DNA of 64,000 bases. Origin: Vulcanimicrobiota bacterium. GTDB taxonomy: Bacteria; Vulcanimicrobiota; Vulcanimicrobiia; Vulcanimicrobiales; Vulcanimicrobiaceae. The position numbers were made by a program, and so were the translations under genes. The notes beneath the pieces are model-generated. The model saw only the letters and a list, made by a program, of their open reading frames with translations. It ran no database searches and was not told the DNA's origin. The stretch lies in NCBI GenBank assembly GCA_963714015.1, contig OY970223.1:1920001-1984000 (forward strand), written 5' to 3'. Shown one piece after another: positions 1,196 to 47,620 of this stretch. Position 1 is the stretch's first letter. The number at the start of each line of letters is the position of its first letter.

Positions 1196-1260
1196 TAGCC
1201 CCGTCTGGAGGTGACTCGAACATCAGGCACTCCGCCGATGCCGGGGGCCGAAGGCCGGGC

Positions 1261-1320
1261 GCCCCACGCGCTTTGCGTGTGGGGGGCGTGACGCGCGAAG
1301 CGCGGATACGCCTGTTAAAC
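1261..1320 (+). repeat. Dispersed two-hairpin element, copy 1 (rplJ leader)
   Basis: CCCCACGCGC-TTT-GCGTGTGGGG then GGCGT-GAC-GCGCGAAGCGC-GGAT-ACGCC-TGTTAAAC. Matches copies at 30636, 31815, 46388 and 46655(-). Confidence 0.7.
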
Positions 1321-1331
1321 GGAGCACACTC

Positions 1332-30407: not shown

Positions 30408-30424
30408 ATAAGATGAAATCATCG

Positions 30425-30589
30425 CGGCGCCCTCGGGGAGTGAACGAATCTCCCCGGCGCCCTCGGGGAGTGAACGAATCTCCCCGGCGCCCTCGGGGAG
30501 TGAACGAATCTCCCCGGCGCCCTCGGGGAGTGAACGAATCTCCCCGGCGCCCTCGGGGAGTGAACGAATCTCCCCGGCGCCCTCGGGGA
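30425..30589. repeat. 30-bp perfect tandem repeat, 5.5 copies
   Basis: Unit CGGCGCCCTCGGGGAGTGAACGAATCTCCC. Forms CTCCCCG/CGGGGAG hairpins. No spacers. Confidence 0.97.
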
Positions 30590-30635
30590 ATCTTTGGTTT
30601 GCCGGAATGCATTACGCGCCTTGAGCTTCTCGGGG

Positions 30636-30690
30636 GCCCCGGCGCTTTGCGCTGGGGGGCGCGGAGGCTCAGAGCGGAGCGCCTTTTAAA
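30636..30690 (+). repeat. Dispersed two-hairpin element, copy 2 (before fliG)
   Basis: CCCCGGCGC-TTT-GCGCTGGGG GGCGC-GGAG-GCTCAGAGC-GGA-GCGCC-TTTTAAA-ATG. Confidence 0.8.
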
Positions 30691-31770
30691 ATGGAATCGC
30701 CAATCGTCAATTTGAGCGACGTGCCCAGCGATCTGCCGGATCCGGGATTCGCGCTCGGCAATTTCGGTTCCATCGACGTATCGGGCCCCGAAAAGGCTGC
30801 GATTCTGATCATCACGCTGGGACTCGAACTCTCGGCGACGATCTTCAAGTTCTTGCGGCAAGACGAAGTCGAGCGCATCGTGCTGGAGATCGCGAAGATC
30901 TCGACCGTGCCGCTCGAGAAGCGCGATTCCGTAATTACGGAAGCGTATCAGCGCGCCATAGCGCTCAAGTATATCAACGAAGGCGGCATCGAGTACGCAA
31001 AGGAGATTCTCGAGCGCTCGTTCGGCGCGGGCCAAGCCGACGACATGACGAACCGGCTGTTCGCTGCGCTCAAGCACGGCAATCCGCTGGAGCTGATCAA
31101 GAAGACCGAACCGGCGCAGTTGCTGCAGTTCATCCAAGACGAGCATCCGCAGACGATCGCGCTCATTCTCGTGTACATGGCGCCCGACCAAGCCGGCGCG
31201 GTACTTTCGGCGCTTCCGCCGGAGCTGCAAGCCGAAGTGGCGATGCGCATTGCAATCCTTCAGAAGACCGCGCCCGAGGTGTTGGAACAATTGGACGAAC
31301 TGCTCGGACGCCGGCTGCTCGTCAGCGGGGCCGATTTTGCCAAAGCCGGCGGCGTTCAATCGCTCGCGAACGTCATGGGATTCGTGGATCGCGAGACCGA
31401 GAAAAACATTCTCGAAGGTCTCTCCAAGCGCGATCCGGAGCTTGCGACCGAGGTCAAGAACCTGCTCTTCGTCTTCGAAGACATCGTCAATCTGGACGAC
31501 CGTTCTATCCAGCGCATCCTCAAAGAAGTCGAAGGCAAGGATCTTGCGCTCGCGCTCAAGGCCTCAAATGACGACATGCTGGCGCGAGTCTTCAAGAACA
31601 TGTCCTCGCGCGCCGCTCAAACGCTGCGCGAAGAGATCGAGCTGCTCGGCCCGACGCGCATGCGCGAAGTCGGCAAGGCGCAGCAGGCAATCGTCGACGT
31701 GATTCGGACGCTCGAAGAGAACGGCCAAATCGTCATCGCGCGCGGCGCCAAAGACGAGAAGCTCGTTTGA
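30691..31770 (+). CDS. fliG: Flagellar motor switch protein
   Basis: EKAAIL, GGIEYA, EHPQTIAL, FVFEDI, NMSSRAA. Confidence 0.97.
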   Translation: MESPIVNLSDVPSDLPDPGFALGNFGSIDVSGPEKAAILIITLGLELSATIFKFLRQDEVERIVLEIAKISTVPLEKRDSVITEAYQRAIALKYINEGGIEYAKEILERSFGAGQADDMTNRLFAALKHGNPLELIKKTEPAQLLQFIQDEHPQTIALILVYMAPDQAGAVLSALPPELQAEVAMRIAILQKTAPEVLEQLDELLGRRLLVSGADFAKAGGVQSLANVMGFVDRETEKNILEGLSKRDPELATEVKNLLFVFEDIVNLDDRSIQRILKEVEGKDLALALKASNDDMLARVFKNMSSRAAQTLREEIELLGPTRMREVGKAQQAIVDVIRTLEENGQIVIARGAKDEKLV

Positions 31771-31814
31771 TGCGCTCGATCGAGATCGCGTCCTGCTGTA
31801 GACGGCAGGCTTCG

Positions 31815-31862
31815 GCCCTGCTCGCTCGGGGGCGCGGAGGCTAGGCCGCAGCGCCTTTCCAA
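31815..31862 (+). repeat. Dispersed two-hairpin element, copy 3 (before fliH; first hairpin degenerate)
   Basis: GGGGGCGC-GGA-GGCTAGGCC-GCA-GCGCC-TTTCCAA-ATG. Confidence 0.7.
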
Positions 31863-32717
31863 ATGGGACGGGTCGTCAAAGGTGCGCAGGTAGCGCAACA
31901 GACGTATCAACTCAAGCCGCCGCCGGCTAACGGTGCGCGGCATTCGGCGTTTGCACCGCTCGAAGAAGATCCGCTGTTTGCGCAAGGCCTGCATGACCTT
32001 ACCTTCTCCGAAGCTGCGCCGCCGCCGTCGATTGACTTCGAAGCGCTTCGCGCCGAAGCGGAGCAACTGGTCGAAGACGCTTCGCGTGACGCGCAAGCGC
32101 TCGTTCGGGACGCCCAAGCCCGCGCAGTGGCGCTGCTGGAAGACGCCGAGCGGCGCGTCGCGCAAATTGAAGGTGAAGCGAAAAACCGTGGCCTCGAACA
32201 GGGCGTCGCCGATGGACGCGCCGCGGCGCAGGCCGAGATGGACGAGATGCTCGAGACGATGCGCGGTTTGGTGCAGATGGCGCTGGCGGAACGTCACAAG
32301 ATCATCGAGACTGCCGAACCCGAGATCGTCCGGCTCTCGGTCGCAGTCGCGGAGCGGATTCTCAATCAGCACATAGCCTTGGATCCGCACACGGTTCTGG
32401 AGATGGTCAAGTCCGCCGTCATGCGGCTGGTCAACCGTGAGAAGGTGACCGTTCGCGTTAATCCGTCGGACATCGAAATCATGCGCAGTCAGCGCGAGCA
32501 GCTGATGGCGATGAACGACATCGACAACATGCGGATCATCGAGGATCAGCGCGTCGATCGCGGAGGCATCGTCATCGATACCGACGCAGGAACGATCGAC
32601 AGCAAGATTTCTACGCAATTGCGGGAGGTTCGCCGGCTCCTGGCGGTGGACGATTCGCTGACAGTGCCGGCCTCCGCCGGCCCGGCGCTCGTGAATCCGC
32701 CCGCCCAGGCCAGTTGA
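31863..32717 (+). CDS. fliH: Flagellar assembly protein
   Basis: GxxxG repeats, VRVNPSD, VDRGGIVIDTDAGTID. Confidence 0.92.
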   Translation: MGRVVKGAQVAQQTYQLKPPPANGARHSAFAPLEEDPLFAQGLHDLTFSEAAPPPSIDFEALRAEAEQLVEDASRDAQALVRDAQARAVALLEDAERRVAQIEGEAKNRGLEQGVADGRAAAQAEMDEMLETMRGLVQMALAERHKIIETAEPEIVRLSVAVAERILNQHIALDPHTVLEMVKSAVMRLVNREKVTVRVNPSDIEIMRSQREQLMAMNDIDNMRIIEDQRVDRGGIVIDTDAGTIDSKISTQLREVRRLLAVDDSLTVPASAGPALVNPPAQAS

Positions 32718-34046: not shown

Positions 34047-34080
34047 TCTTTTCGAGAGCCTGCCCGAGGACGCCGCGGAG

Positions 34081-35147: not shown

Positions 35148-35184
35148 CGGAAGGTAAGCGGCAGGTGCCGCTAAACTGACGGGT

Positions 35185-35766
35185 ATGGGCCCGGATCTGA
35201 TCAGCGCATGGGCCTCGCTGGGTACCGCCTTCGTGATCGGAGCAAGCGCTATCGCAGCGCTCATACAGCTTCGTCACATGCGTGCGGGCAACCAGCTCGA
35301 GGCGCTCCTTTCACTGGAACGCGACTTCCGTGCGCCGGACGTTCAAGCTGCGCTGCGGTACATTCAGGCGGAGCTCCCGGAACGGATGCAGGAGCCGCGT
35401 TACCGCTCCGAGCTCGAGACGATCGGCTACGTCGATCCGGACGTGCATTCCGAACTCATCGTCTGCAACTGGTTCAACGAAATCGGCACGCTCGTCAAGC
35501 ACCGGCTGGTTTCGGAAGACGCTTTCATGGACTTGTTCGCGCGGTTGATAGTCTATTGCTGGCGCCTAGTCGGTCCGGCGGTTGCGGTCATGCGACGCAC
35601 GCGCGGCGACTTCCAGTACCACGATTTTGAATATCTGGCTCTGCGGGCGCAGACGTGGCTCGAGCGCCATCCTCGCGGAATTTTCCCTTTGGCATCGGCT
35701 CGCAAGCCGCTCTCCGACCCCTGGAAAGAATTGGATAAACGCCGTGTCGACGAGGTAACTGCATAA
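35185..35766 (+). CDS. Hypothetical membrane-anchored protein (DUF4760-like)
   Basis: N-terminal TM, NWFNEIGTLVK, DFEYLA. Confidence 0.65.
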   Translation: MGPDLISAWASLGTAFVIGASAIAALIQLRHMRAGNQLEALLSLERDFRAPDVQAALRYIQAELPERMQEPRYRSELETIGYVDPDVHSELIVCNWFNEIGTLVKHRLVSEDAFMDLFARLIVYCWRLVGPAVAVMRRTRGDFQYHDFEYLALRAQTWLERHPRGIFPLASARKPLSDPWKELDKRRVDEVTA

Positions 35767-36242
35767 TGTTTCGACTGCTCGCTGCGGCGCTCGCCGCATC
35801 CCTGATCCTTACGGCCTGCAAAGGCTCCTCGACGTCCGCGCCCCCAGCGTATTCGAACATCTCCGGCGATTACTCCGGAACGATGCAGGATGCGCAGCTC
35901 GGCAGCGGTACAGTCGTGGGCACGCTGGCGCAGCACGGTTCGTCCGCAGGCGGTCAAATGACCGAGACTACCGGCGGCGGCGCTCAGAATTTCCAGTTTT
36001 CGGTGACAATAGATACGTCGAATAACATCACCGGCGCCATGGTCATCGACGAATCGTCCGGAACGACGTGTACGTTCAGCACGACCGGAGTGTACGATCC
36101 CTCGAGTAATGCGATTTCAGGAACGTACACGGCCGTCACGAATTGTTCGGGTGATACCGGCACGTATACGCTCGCGCAACAATGCTTCGACACGGTCACC
36201 AGCCATGGTAAGCGCCGTATCCTCGGCGTGCGCAAGTGTTAG
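35766..36242 (+). CDS. Lipoprotein
   Basis: LTAC lipobox. Thr/Gly-rich beta strands with further Cys. Confidence 0.8.
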   Translation: MFRLLAAALAASLILTACKGSSTSAPPAYSNISGDYSGTMQDAQLGSGTVVGTLAQHGSSAGGQMTETTGGGAQNFQFSVTIDTSNNITGAMVIDESSGTTCTFSTTGVYDPSSNAISGTYTAVTNCSGDTGTYTLAQQCFDTVTSHGKRRILGVRKC

Positions 36243-36270
36243 CGGCTGCGGCGGCGCGGGGCTAGCAATC

Positions 36271-39003
36271 TCAGGATGACAAGCGCAGTGCGTCGGATTC
36301 GGAGAGACGCCGGCCTTCGTCCCTGAGACGCGCGAACGCGCCGGCGGGGACGCAGCTTTCGAGATGCTGCGCGATGTGTTGAAACGCGATGTCGTCCGCC
36401 GCGGTGCGTGCCCAGTTCATCGCTCGCGTGCGGGCGTCGGCGTAGCCGAATAACCGCACTGCTTCTTCGGGATTCTTTTTTGCGTGCTCGGGCGAGCAAA
36501 ACGCCATGGCGAGCGCTGCGATGAGCTCGTGGCCCGCGTCGCGTGCCAAACGAAGCGCCTCGCGGGCATAAGGTATCGCGCCTTCGACGTCGCCAATCGT
36601 GAACGAGTAGAGAGCAAGATTGCTGCACAGGTACATGCGCGTGTCCGAATCGGCGCAGCTGAGCGCTTCGACGGAAAGATCGATGGCGTTCCGGTAGAAG
36701 CCGGCGGAGGCTTCGGCTTCGGCCCACCATTGCCGAACGAGGCATGCTTCCTGCGGATCGCGCAGCGAGTCGAGTGCGGCGAGCGCTTCAAGGAATTGCG
36801 CGCGGGCATTCTCTATTTGATCCGGCGGCAGCGCGAAAGCGCAGCGCCGCAGAACGTGCGCCAACAGGTGTGAATCACCCGATTGCCGGGCTCGCTGCAG
36901 AGCTTCTTCCGCGTAGGGTTGAGCCTGCGCGTAGCCTTGTCGACCGGCGTAAAGCTGCGCGGCCTGAGAGAGCGCGCGAGTGAGCGCGCGATCGTCGCCG
37001 GCCTTCCGCGAGAGTTCTACGGCGCGCAGCGCGCAGGGAAGCGCCGATTCGTGTGCCTGCTGATTCGTATAGAGCATGGAAAGCCCGTACTCGAGACGCG
37101 CCGCCGTATCGGACGGCAGATCTTCAGTCCGTTCTCTTGCCGAGTTGCACCACGCAATGCCCTCGGAAAGAAGGGAAAGCCGAAGGAAGATCGGCGCCGT
37201 GTTTGCAGCAATCGCGGCACCGAGGCCCGGATCGCGCTTTTCGTCGAGCGACCAGCGCAGCGCCGCGCGGAAGTTGTCGAGATCCGGCATGAGCTCCGCG
37301 AGCCAATTTTCCGGCGGATCGGCATCGAACTGGGCATAAGCCGTTTGCGCGCGCCGGGCGTAGTACAGTGCGTGGCGCTGGTACAAGCTCGACGCCTCGC
37401 CGGCCTCGTGCAGACGGTTCTGCGCGTATTCGCGAATTGCCGTGAGGACGGTGTAACGCTCCTCGCCCGGCGGTTCGGTGTCTTGCAATTTTTGCTTGGC
37501 GTAATCCTGAATGCTTTCCAGCAGATGATATCGCTGCTGGGCTCGATCGACGTCTGCTACGATAAGGGACTTGTCGACGAGCGAGGATAGCAGATCCAGG
37601 ATCGTCCATTCGTCGAGCGACTCGTCGCTGCAGACGCCGCCGGCAGCTTCGAGCGAGAAGCTTCCGCTGAAGACGGCAATTCTCCGAAAGAGCGCCTTCT
37701 CGGAGGCATTGAGAAGTTCGTAACTCCAGTCGATCATCGCGCGAAGCGTCTGCTGTCGCGGAAGAGCGGTGCGCGTGCCGCCGGTAAGGATCCGGAAGCG
37801 CTCGCTGAGCCGGCGAAGCAGCTCTTCCAACGAGATGGCGCGCACTCGGGCGGCGGCAAGTTCGATTGCCAGCGGTATGCCGTCCAAATGTCCGCAAATC
37901 CGATCGATCGCCGGCTGGTTCTCAGCCGTTGCGGCAAAGCCGGGCAGAGCGCTCCGCGCGCGCTGAACGAAGAGCCGCACCGAATCTTGCCGGTCGAGCG
38001 GCGGCAAGCGATAAACGGACTCGCCGGGCAGGTGCAGCAGTTCGCGGCTCGTCGTAAGAATCGTGACGCGAGGGCATCGTTCTCGAATCGAAGCGACGAC
38101 TCGAGCGGCGGCCTCGATGACGTGCTCGCAGTTGTCCAGCACGATCAGCAGTTCGCGGTTGCGCAGGTAGGTGACGAGTGTCCCGACAGCATCGTCCCCT
38201 TCTGCCGGAGCTTCAAGTGCGGTTAGTATCGTCGCCGGAACCAGCTGCGCATCGGCGAGCGGAGCCAGATTCACGAACCACGCTCCGTCCGGCATTCGAT
38301 CGATCGCATCCGCCGCGCACTGAAGCGCGATGCGCGTCTTCCCCACGCCGCCGGTTCCGGCGATTGTCACCAGCGTGCTGTCTGCAAGCAATCTGCGCAC
38401 GTTGACGACGTCTTCCTCTCGTCCGATGAATGCAGTGGATTGGGTCGGCAGATTGTTCGGAATCGCGTCCAGGGTGCGCAGCGGTTTGAAATGCGTGGGA
38501 AGATCCGGCGCGACGAGCTGGTAAATCCGTTCGGGGCGTTCGAGGTCCTTGAGATGAAACGTCCCGAGCGCGCGCAGCGAGATTCCGGGCGGAAGCGAAT
38601 TCCCGGCGGCGTCGGCGAGGGTGCCGGATGCGACTACTTGGCCGCCGTGCGCCGTGCCGAGTATCCGCGCTACGCGATTGAGCGGGGGTCCGAAAAAGTC
38701 GCCCGCGCGTGCTTCCGCTTCGCCCGCGTGGAGCGCCATGCGCACGCGCAGTCCATCGACGGCAGACCAATCTTCCGCCAAAAGCGAACGCTGCGCCTCC
38801 AGCGCCGCTCGCAGAGCATCCTCCGGTGAATCGAACGTAACGCAAAACGCGTCGCCGACCGTTTTGAAAACGCGGCCGTTGTTGGCGTTCATCGCGGACC
38901 GGAGAAGCTCGTCATGCCGGTTCACCGCCTGCTGCATCATCGCAGGCTTGGCTTCCCAGCGGGCCGTGCTGCCTTCGATGTCGGAAAAAAGAAAGACCGG
39001 CAT
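36271..39003 (-). CDS. Class III adenylate cyclase-STAND ATPase-TPR protein
   Basis: FSDIEGST, KTVGDAF, GTGGVGKT, LDNCEH, LDGIPLAIELAAAR, helical repeats. Confidence 0.93.
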   Translation of the reverse strand: MPVFLFSDIEGSTARWEAKPAMMQQAVNRHDELLRSAMNANNGRVFKTVGDAFCVTFDSPEDALRAALEAQRSLLAEDWSAVDGLRVRMALHAGEAEARAGDFFGPPLNRVARILGTAHGGQVVASGTLADAAGNSLPPGISLRALGTFHLKDLERPERIYQLVAPDLPTHFKPLRTLDAIPNNLPTQSTAFIGREEDVVNVRRLLADSTLVTIAGTGGVGKTRIALQCAADAIDRMPDGAWFVNLAPLADAQLVPATILTALEAPAEGDDAVGTLVTYLRNRELLIVLDNCEHVIEAAARVVASIRERCPRVTILTTSRELLHLPGESVYRLPPLDRQDSVRLFVQRARSALPGFAATAENQPAIDRICGHLDGIPLAIELAAARVRAISLEELLRRLSERFRILTGGTRTALPRQQTLRAMIDWSYELLNASEKALFRRIAVFSGSFSLEAAGGVCSDESLDEWTILDLLSSLVDKSLIVADVDRAQQRYHLLESIQDYAKQKLQDTEPPGEERYTVLTAIREYAQNRLHEAGEASSLYQRHALYYARRAQTAYAQFDADPPENWLAELMPDLDNFRAALRWSLDEKRDPGLGAAIAANTAPIFLRLSLLSEGIAWCNSARERTEDLPSDTAARLEYGLSMLYTNQQAHESALPCALRAVELSRKAGDDRALTRALSQAAQLYAGRQGYAQAQPYAEEALQRARQSGDSHLLAHVLRRCAFALPPDQIENARAQFLEALAALDSLRDPQEACLVRQWWAEAEASAGFYRNAIDLSVEALSCADSDTRMYLCSNLALYSFTIGDVEGAIPYAREALRLARDAGHELIAALAMAFCSPEHAKKNPEEAVRLFGYADARTRAMNWARTAADDIAFQHIAQHLESCVPAGAFARLRDEGRRLSESDALRLSS

Positions 39004-39004
39004 A

Positions 39005-40351
39005 TTGCTGCGCGTTTACCGTACGAGGGAAGGGCGCCCAATCCCGCTCGCGCAATTACGGCGCATCATTTCCGCATCGAACAGCCGCACCATTGCCGCG
39101 GATACGCTCACGCCCATCTCGGCCTATCGCGCCCTCGCGACGACGGGAGCTTCATGCTTGCTCGAGAGCGTCGAAAGCGGCGGCCGCATTTCGCGTTACT
39201 CGTTTATCGGCATCGACTACTTGGACGCCAAATCGTTTGACGACGACGGCTCGCTGATCGAAAACGTGCGCGAGTTCGTGAAGGACACCGGACTCGACGC
39301 CCTGGTCGCGTTTTCGTATGACGCCGCCAGGACGGCTGCGCGATTGAAGGCGCGCGAGCCCTCGCAACCCTTCATGCCCGCGGCCTACGTCGCCATTCCG
39401 CGCACCTGGCTGATCTTCGACCACTTCACGGACCGGCTTTCGATTACGAGCGATTCGCCCGCACGGATCGACTCGTGCCTGGAGCAGCTGCTCGACTCGC
39501 ACGTCTGCCTTCCGCAGGAGGTTCGTGCGACCAGTGCGATGCAAGCCTCGCTGGATCGAACCGGCTATCTGCAGCGCGTTGCGCGCGTTAAGGAATTCAT
39601 CCGCGACGGCGAGGTCTACCAGTTGCAGCTGGGAATTCGCTTTAGTGCGGAGTTTTCAGGAAGCGCGCTGGACTTGTATCGCGCGATTCGCTCCCGCAAT
39701 CCGTCGCCATACATGTTTTTCGTCGATTCGCCGTTCGGACAATTGCTCGGTGCGTCACCGGAATTTCTCGTGCGCCTGGAGGGACGGCGCGCGCGGATCC
39801 GTCCGCTTGCCGGTACGCGTCCCCGCGGCGGCAACGAAGCCGAAGACGCCGAGATCGCGCAAGAGCTGTTGAGCAATCAAAAAGAACTCGCCGAGCACGT
39901 GATGCTCGTCGATCTCGGGCGTAACGATTTGGGCGCCGTCTGCGTTTTCGGAAGCGTGCGCGCTACGGAGCTCCTGCAGATCGAACGCTACAGCCATGTG
40001 ATGCACATCGTATCCGATTTGATCGGCGAACTGCGTCCGGAGTGCGATGCGCTCGATTTGTTCGCGTCGGGGTTCCCGGCGGGCACCGTAACGGGCGCGC
40101 CCAAGATTCGCGCCATGCAGCTGATCGACGAATTGGAGCCGGCAGCGCGCGGCTTCTACGCCGGCAGTGTCGGACGCTGGGCCGCCGGGGGCGATTTTGA
40201 CTCGTGCATCACGCTGCGCAGCGTGCACGTCGAGCGCAATACTGCCTACTGGCAGGCCTCGGCCGGAATCGTCGCCGACAGCGATCCGGACGCGGAATAC
40301 GACGAGGTGATGCAGAAGACGCGCATCGCCCGCACCGTTTTAGGATTATGA
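39005..40351 (+). CDS. trpE: Anthranilate synthase component I (start uncertain, 39005-39090)
   Basis: LLESVE (Trp feedback motif), NPSPYM, ASPE, PLAGTRPRG, EHVMLVDLGRND, FPAGTVTGAPK. Confidence 0.92.
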   Translation: MLRVYRTREGRPIPLAQLRRIISASNSRTIAADTLTPISAYRALATTGASCLLESVESGGRISRYSFIGIDYLDAKSFDDDGSLIENVREFVKDTGLDALVAFSYDAARTAARLKAREPSQPFMPAAYVAIPRTWLIFDHFTDRLSITSDSPARIDSCLEQLLDSHVCLPQEVRATSAMQASLDRTGYLQRVARVKEFIRDGEVYQLQLGIRFSAEFSGSALDLYRAIRSRNPSPYMFFVDSPFGQLLGASPEFLVRLEGRRARIRPLAGTRPRGGNEAEDAEIAQELLSNQKELAEHVMLVDLGRNDLGAVCVFGSVRATELLQIERYSHVMHIVSDLIGELRPECDALDLFASGFPAGTVTGAPKIRAMQLIDELEPAARGFYAGSVGRWAAGGDFDSCITLRSVHVERNTAYWQASAGIVADSDPDAEYDEVMQKTRIARTVLGL

Positions 40352-40358
40352 TGACGCG

Positions 40359-40973
40359 GTGAAAACTCTGAAAGTCTTGTTCGTCGACAATTTTGACTCG
40401 TTCACGTACAACGTCGTGCATCTGCTCGCGACGCAAGGCGCCGAACCCGAGGTCGTACATAACGACGATCCGCGCCTAACCGCCGGAGTTCTCGATTCCT
40501 TCGACGCGATCGTGGTGGGGCCGGGCCCCGGGAATCCCGCGCAGACGCCTCAAGTCGTAGAACTGATCCGCGAAGCAGTCCGGCGCAAAATGCCGGTATT
40601 CGGCGTATGCCTCGGACTGCAGGCGATCGGCGAAGCTTTCGGCGCGTCCGTCGTTCATGCGCCCGTACCGATGCACGGCAAGGTCTCGACCATCGCTCAC
40701 GACGGAAGCGGACTGTTTGCCGGGATCGATCGGCCTTTGCGCGCGACCCGCTATCACTCCCTTTGCCTGGACGCGTCGACGATACCGGAGGACCTCGAGG
40801 TTACCGGGCGCAGTGAGGACGGCGTGGTTCAAGCCGTTAGTCACCGCTATCTGCCGGTCAGCGGCGTGCAGTTTCACCCCGAGTCGGTGTTGAGCGAACA
40901 CGGCGATCGGATCGTCCGGAACGCCCTCCGGCTTGACAGGGCTGACGGCTCGATGCTATTGTCCCAGCAATGA
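40359..40973 (+). CDS. trpG: Anthranilate synthase component II (glutamine amidotransferase)
   Basis: DNFDSFTYN, GPGPG, GVCLG, RYHSL, QFHPES. Confidence 0.93.
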   Translation: MKTLKVLFVDNFDSFTYNVVHLLATQGAEPEVVHNDDPRLTAGVLDSFDAIVVGPGPGNPAQTPQVVELIREAVRRKMPVFGVCLGLQAIGEAFGASVVHAPVPMHGKVSTIAHDGSGLFAGIDRPLRATRYHSLCLDASTIPEDLEVTGRSEDGVVQAVSHRYLPVSGVQFHPESVLSEHGDRIVRNALRLDRADGSMLLSQQ

Positions 40974-41038
40974 CTCTCTCGGCCGCGCGCTATTCCTATT
41001 GGTGGTATGTTACCGCACTTGCAGTGCCGGTGAGTTGA
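40970..41038 (+). CDS. Aromatic leader peptide MTLSAARYSYWWYVTALAVPVS
   Basis: ATG 7 nt after the -10 of TTGACA-N18-TATTGT (40933-40962). Y-S-Y-W-W-Y codon run. Confidence 0.85.
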   Translation: MTLSAARYSYWWYVTALAVPVS

Positions 41039-41073
41039 GCGCGCGTTTCCGAAGATAGTCTCTAAAGAACTTC

Positions 41074-41110
41074 AGAAGGCCGCCCTTACCGGGGCGGCCT
41101 TCTTGTTTTG
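41074..41110 (+). terminator. Attenuator terminator before DAHP synthase
   Basis: AGAAGGCCGCCC/GGGCGGCCTTCT stem followed by TGTTTTG. Confidence 0.85.
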
Positions 41111-41138
41111 GTACCACAAGCCGGAAATGGATGAAGCG

Positions 41139-41963
41139 ATGTACACGCTTGCGAGCAAACAGAAACAGTCGAACACGGTCGTCATGGTTGAGGACGTGCC
41201 GTTCGGCGGCGGCGGCTTCACGATGATTGCCGGACCGTGTTCGGTAGAGCACCGCGCTCAAATCGAAAGCTCCGGGCATTTCGTCGCGGCTTGCGGCGCG
41301 CGCATGCTGCGCGGCGGTGCATATAAGCCGCGCACCTCGCCTTACGCGTTTCAAGGTTTGGGTGACGAAGGGGTCGAGCTCATCGCGCAAGCCGGCCGGC
41401 TCGCAAGCATCCCCACCGTCGTGGAGGCGCTGTGCGATGCGAATCTGCCTTTGCTCAGCGAGCGCGTCGCAATGATTCAAATCGGCGCGCGGAATATGCA
41501 AAACTTTTCGCTCCTCAAAGCCGCAGCGCGGACCGGAAAACCGATTCTGCTCAAGCGGGCAGCCTCCGCAACGCTGGACGAAGTACTCTATGCAGCCGAG
41601 TACGTTTTGGTCGAGGGGAATCCCAACGTGGTCCTGTGCGAACGTGGAATCCGCGGGTTCGATCCGCAGACGCGCAACGTGTTCGACCTCGGCGGTGCGC
41701 TGCGCTTAAAGGAACTGACCCATTTACCGGTTATTGCCGACCCCAGCCATGCTTGCGGCCGGTCGAGCCTGGTGGAGCCGGTCGTTCTGGCGGCTGCCGC
41801 GGCCGGCTTGGACGGCGCTATCGTCGAGGTACATCCCGAGCCTTCGCGAGCGCTGTCCGACAAGGAGCAGGCGCTCGATTTTCCGGCTTTCGAGCGCCTG
41901 ATGCGCCGCCTGGGCGCCCTGCTGGGATCCGAGGCTAACGTTCCGCTCGCAGCCTGCCGATGA
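41139..41963 (+). CDS. aroF: DAHP synthase type I-beta, catalytic barrel only
   Basis: IAGPCSVE, KPRTSPYAFQG, IGARNMQN, DPSH, EVHP, SD.EQ. Confidence 0.93.
   Translation: MYTLASKQKQSNTVVMVEDVPFGGGGFTMIAGPCSVEHRAQIESSGHFVAACGARMLRGGAYKPRTSPYAFQGLGDEGVELIAQAGRLASIPTVVEALCDANLPLLSERVAMIQIGARNMQNFSLLKAAARTGKPILLKRAASATLDEVLYAAEYVLVEGNPNVVLCERGIRGFDPQTRNVFDLGGALRLKELTHLPVIADPSHACGRSSLVEPVVLAAAAAGLDGAIVEVHPEPSRALSDKEQALDFPAFERLMRRLGALLGSEANVPLAACR
41936..41963 (+). promoter_or_regulatory. Candidate sigma28 promoter for fliK-flgD-flgE
   Basis: TAAC-N16-GCCGATGA, 8 nt before ATG 41972. Confidence 0.5.
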
Positions 41964-41971
41964 CCTGATTA

Positions 41972-43450
41972 ATGACATCTCAAATTGCAGCTATCGGAGC
42001 GGCAATCGCGTCCACCGGACGAGCGCTTCCCATTGCGGGTCAAGGGCTACGCGGTCTCGGTAAGGGACTCGAATTTGCCGGCGAGCTGGATAAGAAGCTG
42101 CAGAGCGGTTTGAGCAAACAGAGCATTCTGAATGAGATTGCAGCACTGCTTCAATCCGGAACTCCGTTAGCGTCAGTGATCGACGGCATTGCCTCGAAGC
42201 TCTCGAGCGCTTTGATCAAGGCGACGGGAAATGCCGGTGACGCAAACGCGCAAAGTACGCTCAAACGCGCGCTGGCATCAGCGTTGGCGCCTCCGGGCAC
42301 CAGTCCACCGGGCAGCGGCACCGAACAAGCCGAAGCCCTCGCGCAACAACTCACGAACATCGTGAACAGGTTGGCGGGGGTGACGAATACTGCAGGGCAG
42401 CAGAGCGAATTCCCGGGAGCAAACTTGGACGCCGAAACGGCGAGAGAAACCCCGGCCCAGCAGACGAAACCCACGACCGCCCAACCCGATCAGGGTGCCG
42501 CGGCCGCTCTTAGCGCATTCGTCGAATCGCTCTTGAACGGTGCAGCTTCCGGTGCGGCAAAGGCAGCGGCCGACGCATCGGCGGGCACGCAGCCCGCGCA
42601 AACGGCACAAACGGCCCAGTCCATTCCGCCCGCGCAACAGGCGGCATTGCCGGACTTTCTTACGCGTATGCTGACCCGAGCGGCGAACGCAGAGGCGCAA
42701 CGCGGGGGCGATACGCTTGCGGGCGCAGTGCAGCCCGGTGCCTCGTCGCACCAATCGAGCGCAACCGGTGCGCCGGTCCCATCCTCAGCGATGCTCTTCG
42801 AACGGTTGCTCGCGATCGTCGCGGAGCAGCAAATGGGTTCGCAGTCCGATGGGGACGCCAAGGATCAGCAAGATTCTTCGGGCGGCGCAGCGCCGCAAAC
42901 GCAAACCACCAACACCGCGCAGACGCCTATTGCAGCGCAGAGTGCAAGCGTACCGGCGGCATCCGCGCAACCGACGGCACAACCGGCTTCGGCCTCGTCG
43001 TACACGACGATCGACCCTCAAGCGGTCATCGAACAAATCGTCAAGGGGATCTCGCTCCAGACGACCGGCAGCACCTCACAGATACAGTTGCGTCTTCAAC
43101 CGGAGCATTTGGGCGACGTTTCGCTCAAGATCACGGTTACAGGCAACACGATCAATGCGAACCTCGTAGCGCAAAACGGGGCCGTGCGCGACGTGCTGCT
43201 CTCCAATCAACAACATCTTGCACGCTCGCTAGCCGAAGCGGGACTTTCACTCGGAAAGTTCTCGGTCGACGTCTCCGGCGGAAATGCCGGATTCACCCAG
43301 CAGCAATCGCAACAGCACGCCCGGTTCGGCCGCTCCATCACGGCCGGCGGGTCGCTGCTCTCGCAGCAAGACGAACCCTGGGAAGATCAGCGGTACGGAC
43401 CGTCGCTCGTCACGAGCGCCGGGTCGCTGGTTTTCAACTATCTGGCTTAA
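41972..43450 (+). CDS. fliK: Flagellar hook-length control protein
   Basis: Low-complexity N-terminus, LRLQPEHLGDV motif, precedes flgD. Confidence 0.88.
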   Translation: MTSQIAAIGAAIASTGRALPIAGQGLRGLGKGLEFAGELDKKLQSGLSKQSILNEIAALLQSGTPLASVIDGIASKLSSALIKATGNAGDANAQSTLKRALASALAPPGTSPPGSGTEQAEALAQQLTNIVNRLAGVTNTAGQQSEFPGANLDAETARETPAQQTKPTTAQPDQGAAAALSAFVESLLNGAASGAAKAAADASAGTQPAQTAQTAQSIPPAQQAALPDFLTRMLTRAANAEAQRGGDTLAGAVQPGASSHQSSATGAPVPSSAMLFERLLAIVAEQQMGSQSDGDAKDQQDSSGGAAPQTQTTNTAQTPIAAQSASVPAASAQPTAQPASASSYTTIDPQAVIEQIVKGISLQTTGSTSQIQLRLQPEHLGDVSLKITVTGNTINANLVAQNGAVRDVLLSNQQHLARSLAEAGLSLGKFSVDVSGGNAGFTQQQSQQHARFGRSITAGGSLLSQQDEPWEDQRYGPSLVTSAGSLVFNYLA

Positions 43451-43462
43451 GGAGAACAACAA

Positions 43463-43939
43463 ATGGCAGGCATCGGCTCCCTTCTCGGGAGCACTCAGCC
43501 GACGACGAGCGTCTCGAATTCTTCGACGCTGGGATCGGCCGCAAATCAACAGTTGGGAGCGAACGAGTTCCTTCAGCTGCTTACCACGGAGCTGCAAAAC
43601 CAAGACCCGACGCAGCCGGTCGACGACACGCAATCCGTCGCCCAACTCGCACAGTTCTCGGCATTGCAGGCAACCGACGAACTCAATCAGTCGTTCCAAA
43701 ACTTCCAGTCGAACTTCGGCGTACTGCAGGCCAGCACGCTCATCGGTAAATCCGTGAGTGTCGAGGTTTCCAACTCTTCCACCGGAAACTCGTCGAGCAT
43801 CTCGGGTACCGTCACGGGGATTCAAGTACAGAACGGTCAACCGTATTTTACGATGAACAACTCGTCAGGACAGCCGATCGACGGCGCCAACGGTCAGCCC
43901 GAACTGTTTTCGACCTCGCAAATCGTTCAGATAGGATAA
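43463..43939 (+). CDS. flgD: Hook capping protein
   Basis: FLQLLTTELQNQDPTQP..AQLAQFS. Confidence 0.95.
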   Translation: MAGIGSLLGSTQPTTSVSNSSTLGSAANQQLGANEFLQLLTTELQNQDPTQPVDDTQSVAQLAQFSALQATDELNQSFQNFQSNFGVLQASTLIGKSVSVEVSNSSTGNSSSISGTVTGIQVQNGQPYFTMNNSSGQPIDGANGQPELFSTSQIVQIG

Positions 43940-43943
43940 GGGT

Positions 43944-44357
43944 GTGGACTCCAAGGATTTGAACGCCGTCAACCGCAGCACTCCGGGAATCATTCCGGGG
44001 CCGGCGCCGCGTCCCGCGGGCACGCCCGTCCAGATTCCGCCGACTTCGGGGCAGAGTTTCCGTTCGCTCCTCGAGCAGCAGCAGGGCGCGACGGCGGCGC
44101 AGCCGCTCAAATTCTCGGCGCACGCGATGCAGCGTCTGCAGTCGCGCAACATTCAGCTCAGTCAGGACGACATCTCGCGCATGAACGTGATGGCCGACAA
44201 GGCGGCGCAAAAGGGCGCGAAACAGTCGCTCTTCATGATGCGGGACGTTGCCATGGTGGTCAGCATTACCAACAGAACAGTCATAACCGCGGTCGATCAA
44301 GATTCGATGAAAGAAAACGTCTTCACGAACATTGACAGCGCGGCCGTCATCAACTAA
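43944..44357 (+). CDS. Flagellar operon protein, TIGR02530-like
   Basis: LKFSAHAMQRL..RTVITA..ENVFTNIDSAV. Confidence 0.9.
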   Translation: MDSKDLNAVNRSTPGIIPGPAPRPAGTPVQIPPTSGQSFRSLLEQQQGATAAQPLKFSAHAMQRLQSRNIQLSQDDISRMNVMADKAAQKGAKQSLFMMRDVAMVVSITNRTVITAVDQDSMKENVFTNIDSAAVIN

Positions 44358-44373
44358 CGACAAATCATCTCTC

Positions 44374-44430
44374 TCGAGGTGGACCGCTGGGCGGAGCCTC
44401 GACGCGGCGCGGACCGACAGACGCGCTGCG
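44374..44430 (+). promoter_or_regulatory. Twin GGACC hairpin motif in the flgE leader
   Basis: TCGAGGT-GGACCGCTGGGCGGA-GCCTCGA and CGCGGCGC-GGACCGACAGAC-GCGCTGCG. Confidence 0.6.
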
Positions 44431-44454
44431 AACCGCTAGGAAAGGTCAACAACC

Positions 44455-46233
44455 ATGGGATTCATGAACTCGATGTACACCGGGATCTCCGGTATGAATG
44501 CGTATCAAACGCAGATCGACCAGATCTCCAACGACATCGCCAATGTTGGGACGACCGGCTATAAGGGCCAGGACATGACGTTCTCCGACATGTTTTATCA
44601 AAACACCGGCTTTGCCAGCGGCCCAAGCCAAACGTTGGGCGGCGTTAATCCTCAGCAGATCGGCCTGGGCGTCAAGGTGGCCGACATCTCGACGAACTTC
44701 TCGCAGGGCGGCTTCGACACGACCGGCGTCAACACGAACCTCGCAGTCAACGGCGACGGGTTCTTCGTGCTGGGTAACACCGACGGCAGCGGAATTCCGA
44801 CGTACACGCGCGACGGGAACTTCTCGCTCAACTCGAACGGCCTGCTTTACGATCCGGCAACGGGCTTGGCGGTCCAAGGATACATGGCCAATTCGCAAGG
44901 CGTGGTGCAAGCGAACGGACAGCTCGGAAACATCACGGTGCCGATCGGTTTGACCTCGCAAGCGACCGCAACGGGATCCGGCGCCAAGGTCGGCCCCTCC
45001 GGCGATAACGTCTTCGACGTGCAGATGGGCGGAAATCTGGATCAGAGCCAGTGGCAGCTCGAAGAGCAAGGCATCATCAACGGCAACGGCCCCGGCCAGG
45101 GTCAGAGCGACACGATCTCCACGACGATTTACGACTCGCTCGGCAACGCGCACCAAGCGTACATCACGTATGTTCCCGATGCGACCGGTGCGACGCCCGC
45201 AGCAGTTGCGAGCGCCGGTGCGGCCGACACGTCGGGCGCCGTAACCGTTGCGACCGGCACGCCGCAGAACGACATCATCACGGTCACGGCTAACGCCGCG
45301 GGAACGCAGGCGACCATTACCGACACGAACGGCTTCAATCAAACGTTCAACGCCGGGCAGCAGGTTACAGTGGGCGGCGCAACGTTCACTTTGGCCACTC
45401 CGCTTCCGTCCAACGGTGTGCAGACGATTACCGTTACCGGCGCGACCACCGGTCTTCCGGCGAGCGTAAACAATTCTCAAGGCAGTGCCGTCACACCGTC
45501 AACGCGTTGGAAGGAAGAGGTTTACTTTACCGACGGTACGATGGTCAACGGCCAGCCGGCGACGTCTTCGAGCCCGGCAACGCTAGGCTACGCCTACTAC
45601 GATCAAAACGGCCAGTTCATCAACACCTCGAGCAGCCTGGGCGTTCCGGGTACGGCTCTGACGACGAACCTGCATAAGGCAGGGGCGCAACCGTCCACCG
45701 CAGCGGGCGACGCGCTCAGCATTACGAACTGGGGCATCGCGAACGGCAATCAGCCGGCGCCTGCGACGATTGGTTTGGATTTCGCGGACGTGACCTCGCT
45801 GGGAGCGACCAGCGCCAGCGGCAGCGGCTACACCGCTACAGTGGTAACGCAGAACGGTTATCCGGCCGGCACGCTCTCGAACATCACGGTCGGCCAAGAC
45901 GGCTCGATCACGGGCGCGTTCACGAACGGTCAGAACAAGACGATCGGTCAAGTAGCGCTCGCGACGTTCCAAAATGAAGGTGGTCTGCAGCGCGTCGGTT
46001 CCAACGGGTTCGAGGCGACTGCGGCTTCGGGTCTCGCGCAGGTCGGTTCGGCCGCCGCCGGACGTTTCGGCACGATCGAATCGGGTCAGTTGGAAGAGTC
46101 CAATGTTTCGCTCGCCGACGAGTTCACGAAGATGATCGTCGCGCAGCGCGCCTTCGAAGCGAATACGCGCGGAATCGACACCGCCGACCAGAACATGCAA
46201 GACGTTCTCGCCATCCGCGGCAGCGAGAACTAA
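44455..46233 (+). CDS. flgE: Flagellar hook protein
   Basis: SMYTGISG..NDIANVGTTGYK, YTRDGNF, LEESNVSLADEFT..QRAFEAN. Confidence 0.96.
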   Translation: MGFMNSMYTGISGMNAYQTQIDQISNDIANVGTTGYKGQDMTFSDMFYQNTGFASGPSQTLGGVNPQQIGLGVKVADISTNFSQGGFDTTGVNTNLAVNGDGFFVLGNTDGSGIPTYTRDGNFSLNSNGLLYDPATGLAVQGYMANSQGVVQANGQLGNITVPIGLTSQATATGSGAKVGPSGDNVFDVQMGGNLDQSQWQLEEQGIINGNGPGQGQSDTISTTIYDSLGNAHQAYITYVPDATGATPAAVASAGAADTSGAVTVATGTPQNDIITVTANAAGTQATITDTNGFNQTFNAGQQVTVGGATFTLATPLPSNGVQTITVTGATTGLPASVNNSQGSAVTPSTRWKEEVYFTDGTMVNGQPATSSSPATLGYAYYDQNGQFINTSSSLGVPGTALTTNLHKAGAQPSTAAGDALSITNWGIANGNQPAPATIGLDFADVTSLGATSASGSGYTATVVTQNGYPAGTLSNITVGQDGSITGAFTNGQNKTIGQVALATFQNEGGLQRVGSNGFEATAASGLAQVGSAAAGRFGTIESGQLEESNVSLADEFTKMIVAQRAFEANTRGIDTADQNMQDVLAIRGSEN

Positions 46234-46387
46234 TCCGTAGCCTTTTACTCAACGCGCGCAACGACACGGAGGTCGTACCTGTGGGCCGGGCGGGGAACCG
46301 CTCGGCCTTCAGCGTAACCAATCATCGCGGCAGCGTCGGGGAGGTGATGGTTTGATCGAATCTACACGCGCCATGAGGAAAATGGGG

Positions 46388-46440
46388 GCCCCATCGGTTA
46401 CGATGGGGGGCGCGCAGGCAAGGCCGGAGCGCCTTTTAAC
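46388..46440 (+). repeat. Dispersed two-hairpin element, copy 4 (before flbD)
   Basis: CCCCATCG-GTTA-CGATGGGG GGCGC-GCA-GGCAAGGCC-GGA-GCGCC-TTTTAAC-GTG. Confidence 0.8.
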
Positions 46441-46635
46441 GTGATTCAGCTTCTGCGGCTCAATGGGCAGCCCATCATGGTGAACGCGGATTTGATTGAA
46501 TCGGTGGAGACCACGCCGGACACGGTGATCACGCTGGTCAGCGGCAACAAGCTCATCGTGCGCGACTCGATGGAGACGATTCAGGCCCGCATCATCGAGT
46601 TCAAACGAAAAATTTACGGTTCCCCGAGCGCTTGA
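46441..46635 (+). CDS. flbD: Flagellar protein FlbD/SwrD
   Basis: MIQLLRLNG..NADLIE..TPDTVITL..G. Confidence 0.93.
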   Translation: MIQLLRLNGQPIMVNADLIESVETTPDTVITLVSGNKLIVRDSMETIQARIIEFKRKIYGSPSA

Positions 46636-46654
46636 TCGCGCTCGATCCCCAGCC

Positions 46655-46718
46655 GTTTTAACGGGCGCTCCATCATCCGCAGGTCGGCGCCGCCCGACGG
46701 CAAAGCCGCCGGGTCCCC
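46655..46718 (-). repeat. Dispersed two-hairpin element, copy 5 (inverted, after flbD)
   Basis: Minus strand reads CCCGGCGGC-TTT-GCCGTCGGG C GGCGC-CGA...GGA-GCGCC-CGTTAAAAC. Confidence 0.65.
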
Positions 46719-46748
46719 GCATCTCCTGCCGTTAGAGCGTAACGCCAT

Positions 46749-46775
46749 TTAAGGTTGGCCCGGTCCCGCCGATAC
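46749..46775 (+). promoter_or_regulatory. Sigma28 promoter for motAB
   Basis: TTAAG..GCCGATAC, 8 nt before ATG 46784. Confidence 0.65.
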
Positions 46776-46783
46776 AGTTAGGG

Positions 46784-47620
46784 ATGGACTTCGCCACTCT
46801 GCTCGGCCTCATTATAGCTTTTGGGGCTATCTTCATTGCCGGCTGGGTCGGCCACACGGATGCGCACGTGCTTTTCGGACGCTGGGAGGCGATCCTATTG
46901 ATCGTCGGCGGCACCATCGGCGCCACGATGACGTCCTTCCCGCTGCGCACGTTCACCAAAGGGTTTTTCGGCGGGTTCAAAACGGCGTTCACCGAGCCGG
47001 TATATCACGAGCGCGACGTTATCGCCACGCTTGTTTCCTTTGCGGAGAAAGCTCGGCGCGAAGGTTTGCTCGCGCTCGAAAACGAGGCGGCGGCGCTGGA
47101 AGACGACTTCATGCGCAAAGGCATCCAACTCGTCATCGACGGCCGCGACACCGACGTCATCCGGAAAGTTCTGGAAACGGAAGTCAGCTACGTGCAGGAA
47201 AAAGGCACCAAGGCTGAAGCCGTGTTCACGAATCTTGGCGGGTACTCTCCCACGCTGGGCATCATCGGAACGGTTCTTGGTCTAATCGGCATGCTCAAAG
47301 GCCTTGCCGGCATGGGCGGAAGTTCGAATGTCGCCGGCGGCATCGGCACCGCTACCGCGCAAGCTTTCGTGGCGACTTTTTACGGCATCATGTTCGCAAA
47401 TCTGCTGTGGCTTCCGCTCGCGAACAAGATCAAAGAACGTTCCGGCCAGCTGCTGCTGCTGCGAGAGATCATGATTGAGGGCATTCTCTCGATCCAGGCC
47501 GGGGACAATCCGCGTCTGCTCGAGGAGCGTCTGCACGCCTTCCTCGATCCGCAAGAGCGCGAAACCGAGATCGAAGAAGGCGGAGCCGTCGCGGAGCAGC
47601 CCAGCTACTCCCCAACGTAG
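46784..47620 (+). CDS. motA: Flagellar stator protein A
   Basis: KARREGLLALE, PTLGIIGTVLGLI, ATFYG. Confidence 0.96.
   Translation: MDFATLLGLIIAFGAIFIAGWVGHTDAHVLFGRWEAILLIVGGTIGATMTSFPLRTFTKGFFGGFKTAFTEPVYHERDVIATLVSFAEKARREGLLALENEAAALEDDFMRKGIQLVIDGRDTDVIRKVLETEVSYVQEKGTKAEAVFTNLGGYSPTLGIIGTVLGLIGMLKGLAGMGGSSNVAGGIGTATAQAFVATFYGIMFANLLWLPLANKIKERSGQLLLLREIMIEGILSIQAGDNPRLLEERLHAFLDPQERETEIEEGGAVAEQPSYSPT

Follow-up and report, generated by a model that had tools for sequence, protein, structure and literature searches.

A two-hairpin repeat family at start codons in a Vulcanimicrobiota genome

Introduction

How is a gene translated when a pair of GC-rich hairpins stands directly before its start codon and leaves no room for a separate Shine-Dalgarno (SD) sequence? 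The question is raised by flbD and several other genes in a 64-kb stretch of DNA from a Vulcanimicrobiota bacterium (GenBank assembly GCA_963714015.1, contig OY970223.1), corresponding to positions 1920001-1984000 of a single-contig genome of 3,562,638 bp (label G000); we refer to this whole stretch as the window. An earlier note, made from the letters of the window alone, had listed five copies of the hairpin pair near rplJ, fliG, fliH and flbD and had offered two explanations, either a repeat resembling REP sequences or miniature inverted-repeat transposable elements (MITEs) that inserts where translation begins, or a translational control RNA not yet described.

Here we describe the two-hairpin element as a real, strongly non-random and previously undescribed repeat family. 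From its sequence and placement we give a probability of about 55% to the reading that this lineage-specific repeat is a portable ribosome-binding cassette, similar in kind to MIRU (mycobacterial interspersed repetitive units) and REP2, that persists before cistrons by virtue of its own (re)initiation site.

A dispersed family with a covarying core

A regular-expression scan over the whole genome gave the first genome-wide view and placed the window copies in a far larger repeat family. A covariance model, R1, built from 24 aligned copies (one per locus; 82 positions, 14 pairs), returned 51 matches at E<=1 from the whole genome, 47 of them at E<1e-6; the latter are called strong copies below. 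The full unit is about 125 nt long (alignment A1) and runs, 5' to 3', from a 5' module (AATC..CGGCGCC-CTC-GGGGAGG, with the conserved 5' motif CTCGGGGAGG) through a variable middle and a G-run to hairpin 1, hairpin 2 and a short tail. Its conserved core is a 60-nt RNA made of the two directly adjacent hairpins. Hairpin 1 comprises CCCC plus 2-5 variable pairs, a loop and GGGG, and hairpin 2 is built as GGCGC / G-N-A / 3-bp stem with 3-nt loop / G-N-A / GCGCC. The tail reads TTTTAAA or similar; in relatives it reads GTTAGA or TTCAAA, with only 2-3 T. Subtype B, represented by the rplJ, rplK, gyrA and pdhB copies, features a longer hairpin 2 (GGCGT...ACGCC), and shortened copies retain GGAGCGCC and the tail.

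Both hairpins are recovered by RNAalifold. Pairs were counted over 67 copies, taken from this genome and from R1 matches in 13 other genomes, in an alignment fitted to the model, which favours the structure; 96.2% of pairing cells could pair, compared with 83.9% in shuffles, and none of 500 shuffles reached the observed value. Both sides had changed at 8 of the 14 pairs (105 cells), and all slid controls were far lower. Hairpin 2 varies in its inner stem, which is found as GCC/GGC, GGC/GCC, GCU/AGC, GUC/GAC, GGU/ACC and GAU/AUC, and compensatory change is visible between orthologues: the fliH copy has GGC/GCC here and GCC/GGC in a congener, and hairpin 1 has changed likewise in the orthologous rpmJ and rplF copies. 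G-U pairs are frequent (one pair is AU in 27 copies, GU in 26 and GC in 11), consistent with a structure formed by the sense strand. Because single-sequence folding z-scores are modest (-3.0 to +1.2), as expected in DNA of 61% GC, it is covariation that carries the case for structure. The covarying stems that the earlier note had read from five copies are borne out by this larger set, and both the 47 strong copies and the covariation go far beyond chance.

Scanned at gathering thresholds, the 64-kb window matched no Rfam family, not even L10_leader at the rplJ copy, in line with the earlier note, which had recognised no named family; a permissive Rfam scan of seven element loci gave only noise at E~1 (mir-1890, ClpQY_promoter). 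Two further candidates were rejected. An attenuator-like alternative pairing of the four GGCGC/GCGCC segments is not recovered by RNAalifold and appears in single folds of the fliG copy only, and CsrA-type GGA sites or a K-turn do not suit an internal loop that is symmetric and varies in its middle base.

The copies and associated features of the window are as follows.

1237..1322, plus strand: subtype-B copy in the rplJ leader (R1 52.6 bits, E 8.6e-11; Pfam Ribosomal_L10)
30425..30589, plus strand: tandem repeat of 30 nt x 5.5 before fliG, a duplicated 5' module of the unit
30564..30693, plus strand: fliG unit (R1 75.5 bits at 30609-30693; Pfam FliG)
31781..31865, plus strand: fliH copy (R1 57.6 bits; Pfam FliH)
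46320..46443, plus strand: flbD unit (R1 82.2 bits at 46361-46443; Pfam FlbD)
46654..46745, minus strand: degenerate inverted copy in the interval between flbD and the next gene (R1 24.5 bits, E 0.0047), with no open reading frame (ORF) after it

All five copies first reported are present at roughly the positions given for them, the inverted one being weak and degenerate, and Pfam agrees with the gene identities proposed (L10, FliG, FliH, FlbD). The start codon indeed follows hairpin 2 by exactly 7 nt at the three flagellar copies: GCGCC-TTTTAAA-ATG at fliG (ATG at 30691), GCGCC-TTTCCAA-ATG at fliH (ATG at 31863) and GCGCC-TTTTAAC-GTG at flbD (GTG at 46441, in a GTGA overlap).

The flbD unit combines the 5' module AATCATCGCGGCAGCGTCGGGGAGG, hairpin 1 as CCCCATCG-GTTA-CGATGGGG and hairpin 2 as GGCGC-GCA-GGC-AAG-GCC-GGA-GCGCC, and its minimum free energy (MFE) fold contains both hairpins (z -2.96). 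In that fold AUCGCG (46324-46329) also pairs with CGUGAU of the start region (46439-46444) and closes the unit, a pairing seen in this one copy. The fliG unit likewise has both hairpins, and the approximately 60 nt noted as common to the regions upstream of the fliG and flbD copies are real and belong to the unit. Each of the 30-nt repeats before fliG can fold as CTCCCCG-GCGCCCT-CGGGGAG, and their repeat family (D1/D2) also matches 46320-46343. In the fliH copy hairpin 1 is degenerate and hairpin 2 intact (inner stem GGC-TAG-GCC). The rplJ copy (z -2.10) comprises an additional small hairpin (GGCC-GAA-GGCC), hairpin 1 and a long hairpin 2 (GGCGT..GCGCG-AA-GCGCG..ACGCC) and is followed by its own GGAG and by ATG at 1332, so that the start lies 19 nt away.

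Position relative to genes

The 47 strong copies form 29 loci, and at 26 of these the element points into a start codon. The 21 gene-proximal copies without an SD of their own end 6-9 nt 5' of the start codon, where there is no room for a separate one; five others (mreB, pdhB, rplK, rplJ and a SIS-domain gene) have their own SD and a start 16-25 nt away. A further 18 copies are inner units of tandem arrays, which comprise 2-5 units at 11 loci and run in one direction throughout. The last three are found in tRNA clusters: one precedes tRNA-Arg by 38 nt in sense orientation, and the other two are antisense. The only back-to-back pair (2740117/2740209) is in a tRNA cluster. These tRNA-cluster spacers, outside the window at 2500203-2500525 and 2739529-2740374 of the contig, carry elements in both sense and antisense orientation.

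Because 20 of the 26 start-directed loci have a co-directional upstream gene on a crude ORF map, most copies appear to be intercistronic. The downstream genes, by Pfam, encode ribosomal proteins L10, L11, S19, L14, L5, L6 and L36, AtpA, GyrA, GyrB, MreB, a release factor, LpxA, an IscU-like protein, a pyruvate dehydrogenase (PDH) E1-beta-like protein, a NuoN-like protein, PknB, a PurP-like protein, a class-V aminotransferase, a T2SSF/Tad protein, a WYL regulator, a SIS/biotinyl protein, FliG, FliH and FlbD, with one product lacking a hit. Copies are thus neither randomly oriented nor in terminator regions, and the sense-strand enrichment before starts that the earlier note had suggested checking is pronounced.

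Putative translation signals at the 3' end

In 95 of 110 start-abutting copies, the 3'-side triplet of the hairpin-2 internal loop and the base after it spell GGAG. This holds for 50 of 88 others (Fisher 4e-6, related copies being treated as independent) and for only 3 of 10 copies that have their own SD (2e-4 against the same 95/110); the 5' side of the loop has no such difference. The 16S anti-SD is canonical (CCTCC). The statement that the flagellar copies have no free SD thus needs qualification: a separate SD is absent, but GGAG stands within the 3' half of hairpin 2, starting at -15/-14.

Stop codons crowd the same region. An NTGA stop/start overlap (A following the start codon) is present at 16 of 21 copies, compared with 33% of 1126 control starts (p 5e-5), and at 28 of 42 in relatives. 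The tail often contains TAA or TAG and the hairpin-2 loop often TAG, so that incoming ribosomes would be halted no more than about 21 nt from the start. For the start region (-7..+10), folding predicts an unpaired probability of 0.55, versus 0.39 in 150 SD-led controls (p 7e-6).

Some copies are spanned by a complete ORF that bridges the upstream stop and the main start, namely at rplN (ATGA...ATGA, 23 codons), atpA, gyrB, fliG, fliH, rplF and tadB. At fliH, the ATG overlapping the fliG stop (TGATG, 31768-31772) opens a 24-codon ORF that ends at the TAG of the hairpin-2 loop. Here the proposal of orphan upstream initiation signals was partly right: the ATGs overlapping the previous stop at the fliG and fliH sites do open short ORFs across the element, as at rplN and rplF. 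The other such signal, GGAGGTGA at 46340 with its counterpart at 1207, is internal to the element and equals the conserved GGGGAGG of the 5' module. A leader ORF after GGGGAGG as a general feature was rejected, since a start codon is present in 10 of 21 copies and the ORF ends at the main start in only two; in one further copy it ends 25 nt inside the gene. An open frame through the element is distinctive in copies with a 7-nt spacer only, not in the 6-nt class. The counts speak neither for nor against a split SD in which the G-run 5' of hairpin 1 would be brought next to the tail: 36 of 41 copies that abut a start have a G-run of at least 5, as do 23 of the 29 others.

We considered whether the element might instead act on transcripts as a processing, stability or transcription element, either an endonuclease site, dividing operon transcripts and tRNA precursors and protecting the resulting ends, or a partial terminator or anti-terminator, any effects on translation being secondary. 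It is present in the spacers of polycistronic mRNAs and tRNAs, in one case 8 nt from the 5' end of a mature tRNA-Ser; a GC-rich hairpin followed by TTTT resembles a terminator in this genome; and the five copies that keep their own SD imply that the element is not merely a substitute for one. However, a simple terminator scan of 30000-47000, which holds four copies (fliG, fliH, flbD, inverted), flagged hairpin 2 in none of them, and the tails of relatives have only 2-3 T. With no conserved alternative structure to serve as a switch, an intrinsic terminator or attenuator fails as an explanation; moreover, a terminator within the S10/spc or flagellar operons would be harmful, and the 6-7-nt spacing and the GGAG and NTGA enrichment are specific to start codons. 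We consider a role in processing or transcription unlikely. For contrast with hairpin 2, a terminator-like bidirectional hairpin with 13 pairs and T-tracts on both sides is present at 41074-41103 of the window. A consensus scan of 30000-47000 found no sigma-70-like promoter in the units, the promoters of this phylum not being known, and inspection by eye picked out a sigma-54-like GG..GC motif in one or two copies that is not conserved.

Filled and empty sites

Orthologous intergenic regions, a comparison the earlier note had recommended, include both filled and empty sites, even within the genus. Copy number is 47 here versus 8 and 7 in two congeners, and ranges from 0 to about 48 among relatives. 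At the fliF-fliG junction both congeners have GGAG-TAG-CGC(G)-ATG, with a native SD at the end of fliF and a gap of 3-4 nt; here the gap is 283 nt and filled by the element, and the former SD reads GGAA. Between the genes for S17 and L14 (rplN), a 68-nt shortened element lies between two CAAATGA sequences in this genome, whereas a congener has a native GTGA overlap; the element is also present in G007 and G017, and G006 and G008 have 6-7-nt gaps. The L24-L5 (rplE) junction is filled only here among seven genomes compared. The S8-L6 (rplF) junction is filled in G000, G007 (twice) and G017 and empty in G006, G008 and G011. In the congener G001 (L249:4987-5017) it is a 30-nt gap, TGAGCAAAACGATATTTGGGGCGCTGAAAA, in which the 5' end of a unit seems to be joined to the tail across a GCGCC repeat; this apparent solo remnant is possibly the footprint of element loss by recombination between GCGCC repeats. 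At fliH the site is filled here and in G001, and the other congener, G002, retains only GTAGCGCC, the tail and ATG.

Two of the insertions are bounded by direct repeats, CAAATGA (7 nt) at rplN and ATGAAATC/ATGGAATC (8 nt, one mismatch) at fliG. They may be microhomology, because they overlap the element's own tail consensus; together with the GCGCC-bounded remnant they hint at microhomology-mediated events. No terminal inverted repeat is evident by eye in alignment A1. The Y1 transposase (RAYT, PF01797) was found in none of 16 family genomes, including this one, and the same search detected it in 6 of 14 controls. Four of the 16 have TnpB (PF07282), none of these four being copy-rich, and the copy-rich G000, G007, G009 and G015 lack it. 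An origin from IS200/IS605 elements fails on these counts.

In this genome no two copies from different loci exceed 84% identity (median 59%), and array neighbours are nearly identical. Because different-locus copies do not exceed 84%, there has been no recent burst, and the pattern of divergence and of filled sites indicates a repeat family that is old and dynamic.

These data bear directly on whether the element is simply a selfish or neutral REP/MITE-like DNA repeat, with hairpins that would serve mobilisation as single-stranded DNA and a start adjacency that would reflect insertion preference or microhomology. The filled and empty sites, direct repeats and solo remnant would all be expected of such a repeat, as would the tandem arrays, the swings in copy number, the antisense copies and a composite form found in one relative. 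Yet Y1 was not found in the 16 family genomes, nor TnpB in the copy-rich ones searched, and no near-identical copies occur at different loci. A gene that has lost its native SD must still be translated, so that the element is not neutral there; G-U pairs on the sense strand, like compensatory changes in situ, indicate selection on the RNA; and the GGAG enrichment is specific to copies followed by a start. That the element is nothing more than a selfish or neutral repeat is, in our view, quite improbable. Between the two explanations first offered, a REP/MITE-like element landing in initiation regions nevertheless fits better than a control RNA, because of the filled and empty sites, the copy number of 0 to about 48, the tandem arrays and the composite form away from starts, but it is not an ordinary REP.

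Distribution among relatives

The element appears to be confined largely to one family. Searches of 40 relatives with R1 gave matches in 20 of 24 same-family genomes, with up to 45 per genome (for G010, G021 and G023, three unpublished genomes among the 20 positives, only counts are used), and none in five genomes of another family of the same order or in 11 of another family of the same class. In an even sample of the phylum, screened with stricter filters that make the counts lower bounds, 47 of 71 same-family genomes had matches and none of 79 genomes across 20 other families did. An exact-pattern scan of 185,579 species genomes found at least 126 matching stretches. Among the 80 matches listed, 66 carry the names Eremiobacterota, WPS-2, Vulcanimicrobiota, Baltobacteraceae, Elarobacter, Lustribacter, Aquilonibacter, Cybelea or Vulcanimicrobiaceae, 8 are labelled 'uncultured bacterium', and 6 come from three metagenome-assembled genomes (MAGs) labelled Limnocylindria, Binatia and Acidimicrobiaceae. 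No viral contig matched. Within the family, G008 (97% complete) has no match. Literature searches on Eremiobacterota, WPS-2, Vulcanimicrobium and Baltobacteraceae gave no description of the element among the papers listed, judged by title or abstract. The element can serve as a clean family-level marker.

Placement before starts recurs beyond this genome. In other genomes a start codon (ATG, a few GTG) lies at 6-8 nt in 63 of 132 pattern-found copies. Of the 40 matches in G015, which belongs to another genus, 20 were examined; every one points into a start, 16 at a distance of 5-8 nt. In two congeners copies precede polA, rpsS, rpmJ, fliH, ftsY, nusA and rplK, and two copies precede tRNA-Ser; at the tRNA-cluster loci of G001 (L206, L208), one copy ends 8 nt 5' of the mature tRNA-Ser(cga). 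G006 departs from this placement, all 11 copies examined (of 14) lying not at starts but inside a repeat of about 250 nt with further hairpins. This composite repeat (11 loci, L238-L248) has at least two more conserved hairpins downstream, CCCCACGATGC-GTTA-GCATCGTGGGG and GCGATTTCGCA-TGG-ATGCGAAATCGC.

Conservation of this breadth could alternatively mark a dedicated cis-regulatory RNA, with the hairpins binding one trans-acting protein, small RNA or ligand at the G-N-A/G-N-A loop and GGCGC/GCGCC stem and thereby co-regulating, at initiation, a growth regulon of ribosomal proteins, tRNAs, ATP synthase, gyrase, release factor and flagellar genes. Stem and internal-loop sequence are conserved across many genera beyond the needs of pairing, orthologous copies have compensatory changes, and position relative to the start is strict. 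The carriers are mostly housekeeping and translation genes, and rplN, rplF, rpmJ, rpsS, atpA, pknB, nusA and rplK recur in other genera. Close relatives, however, lack the element at the same genes, some family genomes such as G008 have none at all, and the carriers have no specific pathway in common. Copy number swings between 0 and 48, and neither the tandem arrays nor the off-start composite are expected of a regulator's site. We regard a trans-acting regulon of this kind as improbable. A related idea makes the two-hairpin core itself a dedicated ribosome-recruitment or control module, which would place the 30S subunit on a start codon 6-7 nt further 3' with little or no classical SD pairing or would act as the binding site of one factor. 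We hold this to be improbable; if true, it would be a single handle on translation of ribosomal proteins, ATP synthase, gyrase and flagellar genes, perhaps on tRNA maturation too, and would define a new growth-control regulon.

Relation to known systems

By sequence the element belongs to none of the repeat families compared here; the closest kinds are MIRU and, in addition, Neisseria REP2/CREN and the Borrelia inverted-repeat (IR) elements. In the excerpts of PMC12548453 and PMC3184786, MIRUs (Supply et al. 1997) are short GC-rich repeats in operon gaps, oriented with the genes and forming tandem arrays. PMC3184786 gives 40-50 copies, in polycistrons. Also described for MIRUs are insertion at start codons with a -4 (ATGA) overlap, an internal ORF that couples to the gene, and filled and empty sites in relatives. 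On these accounts the element is like MIRU in its tens of copies, intergenic location within operons, gene orientation, tandem arrays and filled and empty sites and, in part, in NTGA (16 of 21 copies) and bridging ORFs (at rplN, atpA, gyrB and others). Unlike MIRU, it is found in another phylum and has no sequence relation to it, is longer (about 125 nt) with a covarying two-hairpin core, has an embedded GGAG that appears SD-like and array units that are mostly not multiples of three, and lacks a general bridging ORF (7 of about 15 loci).

The Neisseria REP2/CREN and Borrelia plasmid IR repeats, as excerpted from Delihas 2011 (PMC3184786), have two stem-loops, a promoter, a ribosome-binding site (RBS) and an ATG directly 5' of ORFs, and stand in front of regulated genes. 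The present element is, on that account, similar in being dispersed, with two stem-loops directly 5' of ORFs, an RBS-like GGAG and an adjacent ATG; it differs in that no sigma-70-like promoter was found in its units between 30000 and 47000, most copies lie inside operons, and the hairpins abut the start (6-7 nt) at the 3' rather than the 5' end of the unit. With REP, BIME and REPIN it has in common GC-rich, imperfectly palindromic, extragenic and lineage-specific sequence dispersed in tens to hundreds of copies (REP). Membership in REP/REPIN fails, as no RAYT was found in the 16 family genomes, 26 of 29 loci are in sense before a start at a strict distance rather than downstream of genes, and the copies do not form inverted pairs apart from the single back-to-back one.

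A looser parallel is offered by the TAACTGA direct repeats of Beggiatoaceae, for which the excerpt of MacGregor 2015 (PMC4679880) suggests a role in translation. Those repeats, so described, are unstructured heptamer arrays, whereas the element is a structured unit of 60-125 nt with covariation. In bicistronic-design leaders and in the split RBS of phage T4 gene 38, structure or a short upstream ORF presents a start codon independently of context. These are single natural or engineered cases; the element is a dispersed family, and only 2 of 21 copies have a GGGGAGG-leader ORF that ends at the main start. STAB-SD and put RNA were also among the systems considered for comparison. Overall, the element appears to be a further case of a known kind, that of repeats docking at start codons with their own translation signals, the family itself being undescribed.

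A proposed portable initiation site

Under the reading that we favour, the repeat would multiply locally by tandem duplication and would now and then be gained or lost at other sites. The GGAG in the 3' strand of hairpin 2 would serve as SD, the rigid hairpins would keep the A/U-rich spacer of 6-7 nt single-stranded and would clamp upstream RNA, and stops near the start (TAA in the tail, the TGA of NTGA, TAG in the hairpin-2 loop) would halt upstream ribosomes and so favour re-initiation or coupling. Since its 3' end would be a ready-made (re)initiation site, the element could be tolerated between a stop and the next start, replace the native SD and leave expression intact, and it would persist almost only at the 5' edges of cistrons in sense orientation. 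What the data show directly is that the repeat exists and has the structure, distribution, placement, site variation and sequence signatures given above; that GGAG acts as an SD, that ribosomes re-initiate and that the structure acts at the RNA level is what we infer from sequence.

Several observations weigh against this reading. The enrichment tests, in treating related copies as independent, may be read only with that in mind. The GGAG of ordinary genes has its peak of start positions at -12..-8, and that of the element is 3-4 nt farther from the start; some first-gene copies (aminotransferase, release factor) have GAAG, not GGAG. Of about 15 intercistronic loci only 7 have a bridging ORF, and GC-rich DNA commonly contains open frames. 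Because some copies are tRNA-adjacent, antisense or, as in G006, part of an off-start composite, translation cannot account for the whole set. For a repeat that is gained at new sites, the lack of a recent burst and the absence of Y1 from all 16 family genomes and of TnpB from the copy-rich ones are likewise unfavourable.

If the cassette reading is true, dozens of core intercistronic junctions, among them those of the S10/spc, L11/L10, ATP synthase, gyrase and flagellar operons, have been rebuilt around one structured initiation cassette in a single family of a phylum with almost no cultured members. Sister species in which a given gene has a filled or an empty site would constitute a natural experiment on RBS replaceability, and the family would be a third independent case beside MIRU and REP2, suggesting a general route from selfish repeat to gene expression.

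Consequences for annotation and minor observations

The element also misleads annotation, through starts that have no SD and long spurious ORFs running across arrays, and it may break assemblies. The rplE (L5) start, for example, is ambiguous (2280573-2280670 of the contig): an ATG abutting hairpin 2 would give MLRLKEKY and a TTG 9 nt on would give MKEKY, and L5 begins with MAARLKEKY or MNRLKEKY in relatives. The GyrA-like ORF after a subtype-B copy (1029543-1030736) encodes 397 aa and matches DNA_topoisoIV at profile positions 1-326 of 432; this gene may be split, frameshifted or mis-assembled. Finally, marker-gene completeness is 89.6% for this genome, a single 3.56-Mb contig, and the marker set may fit the lineage poorly.

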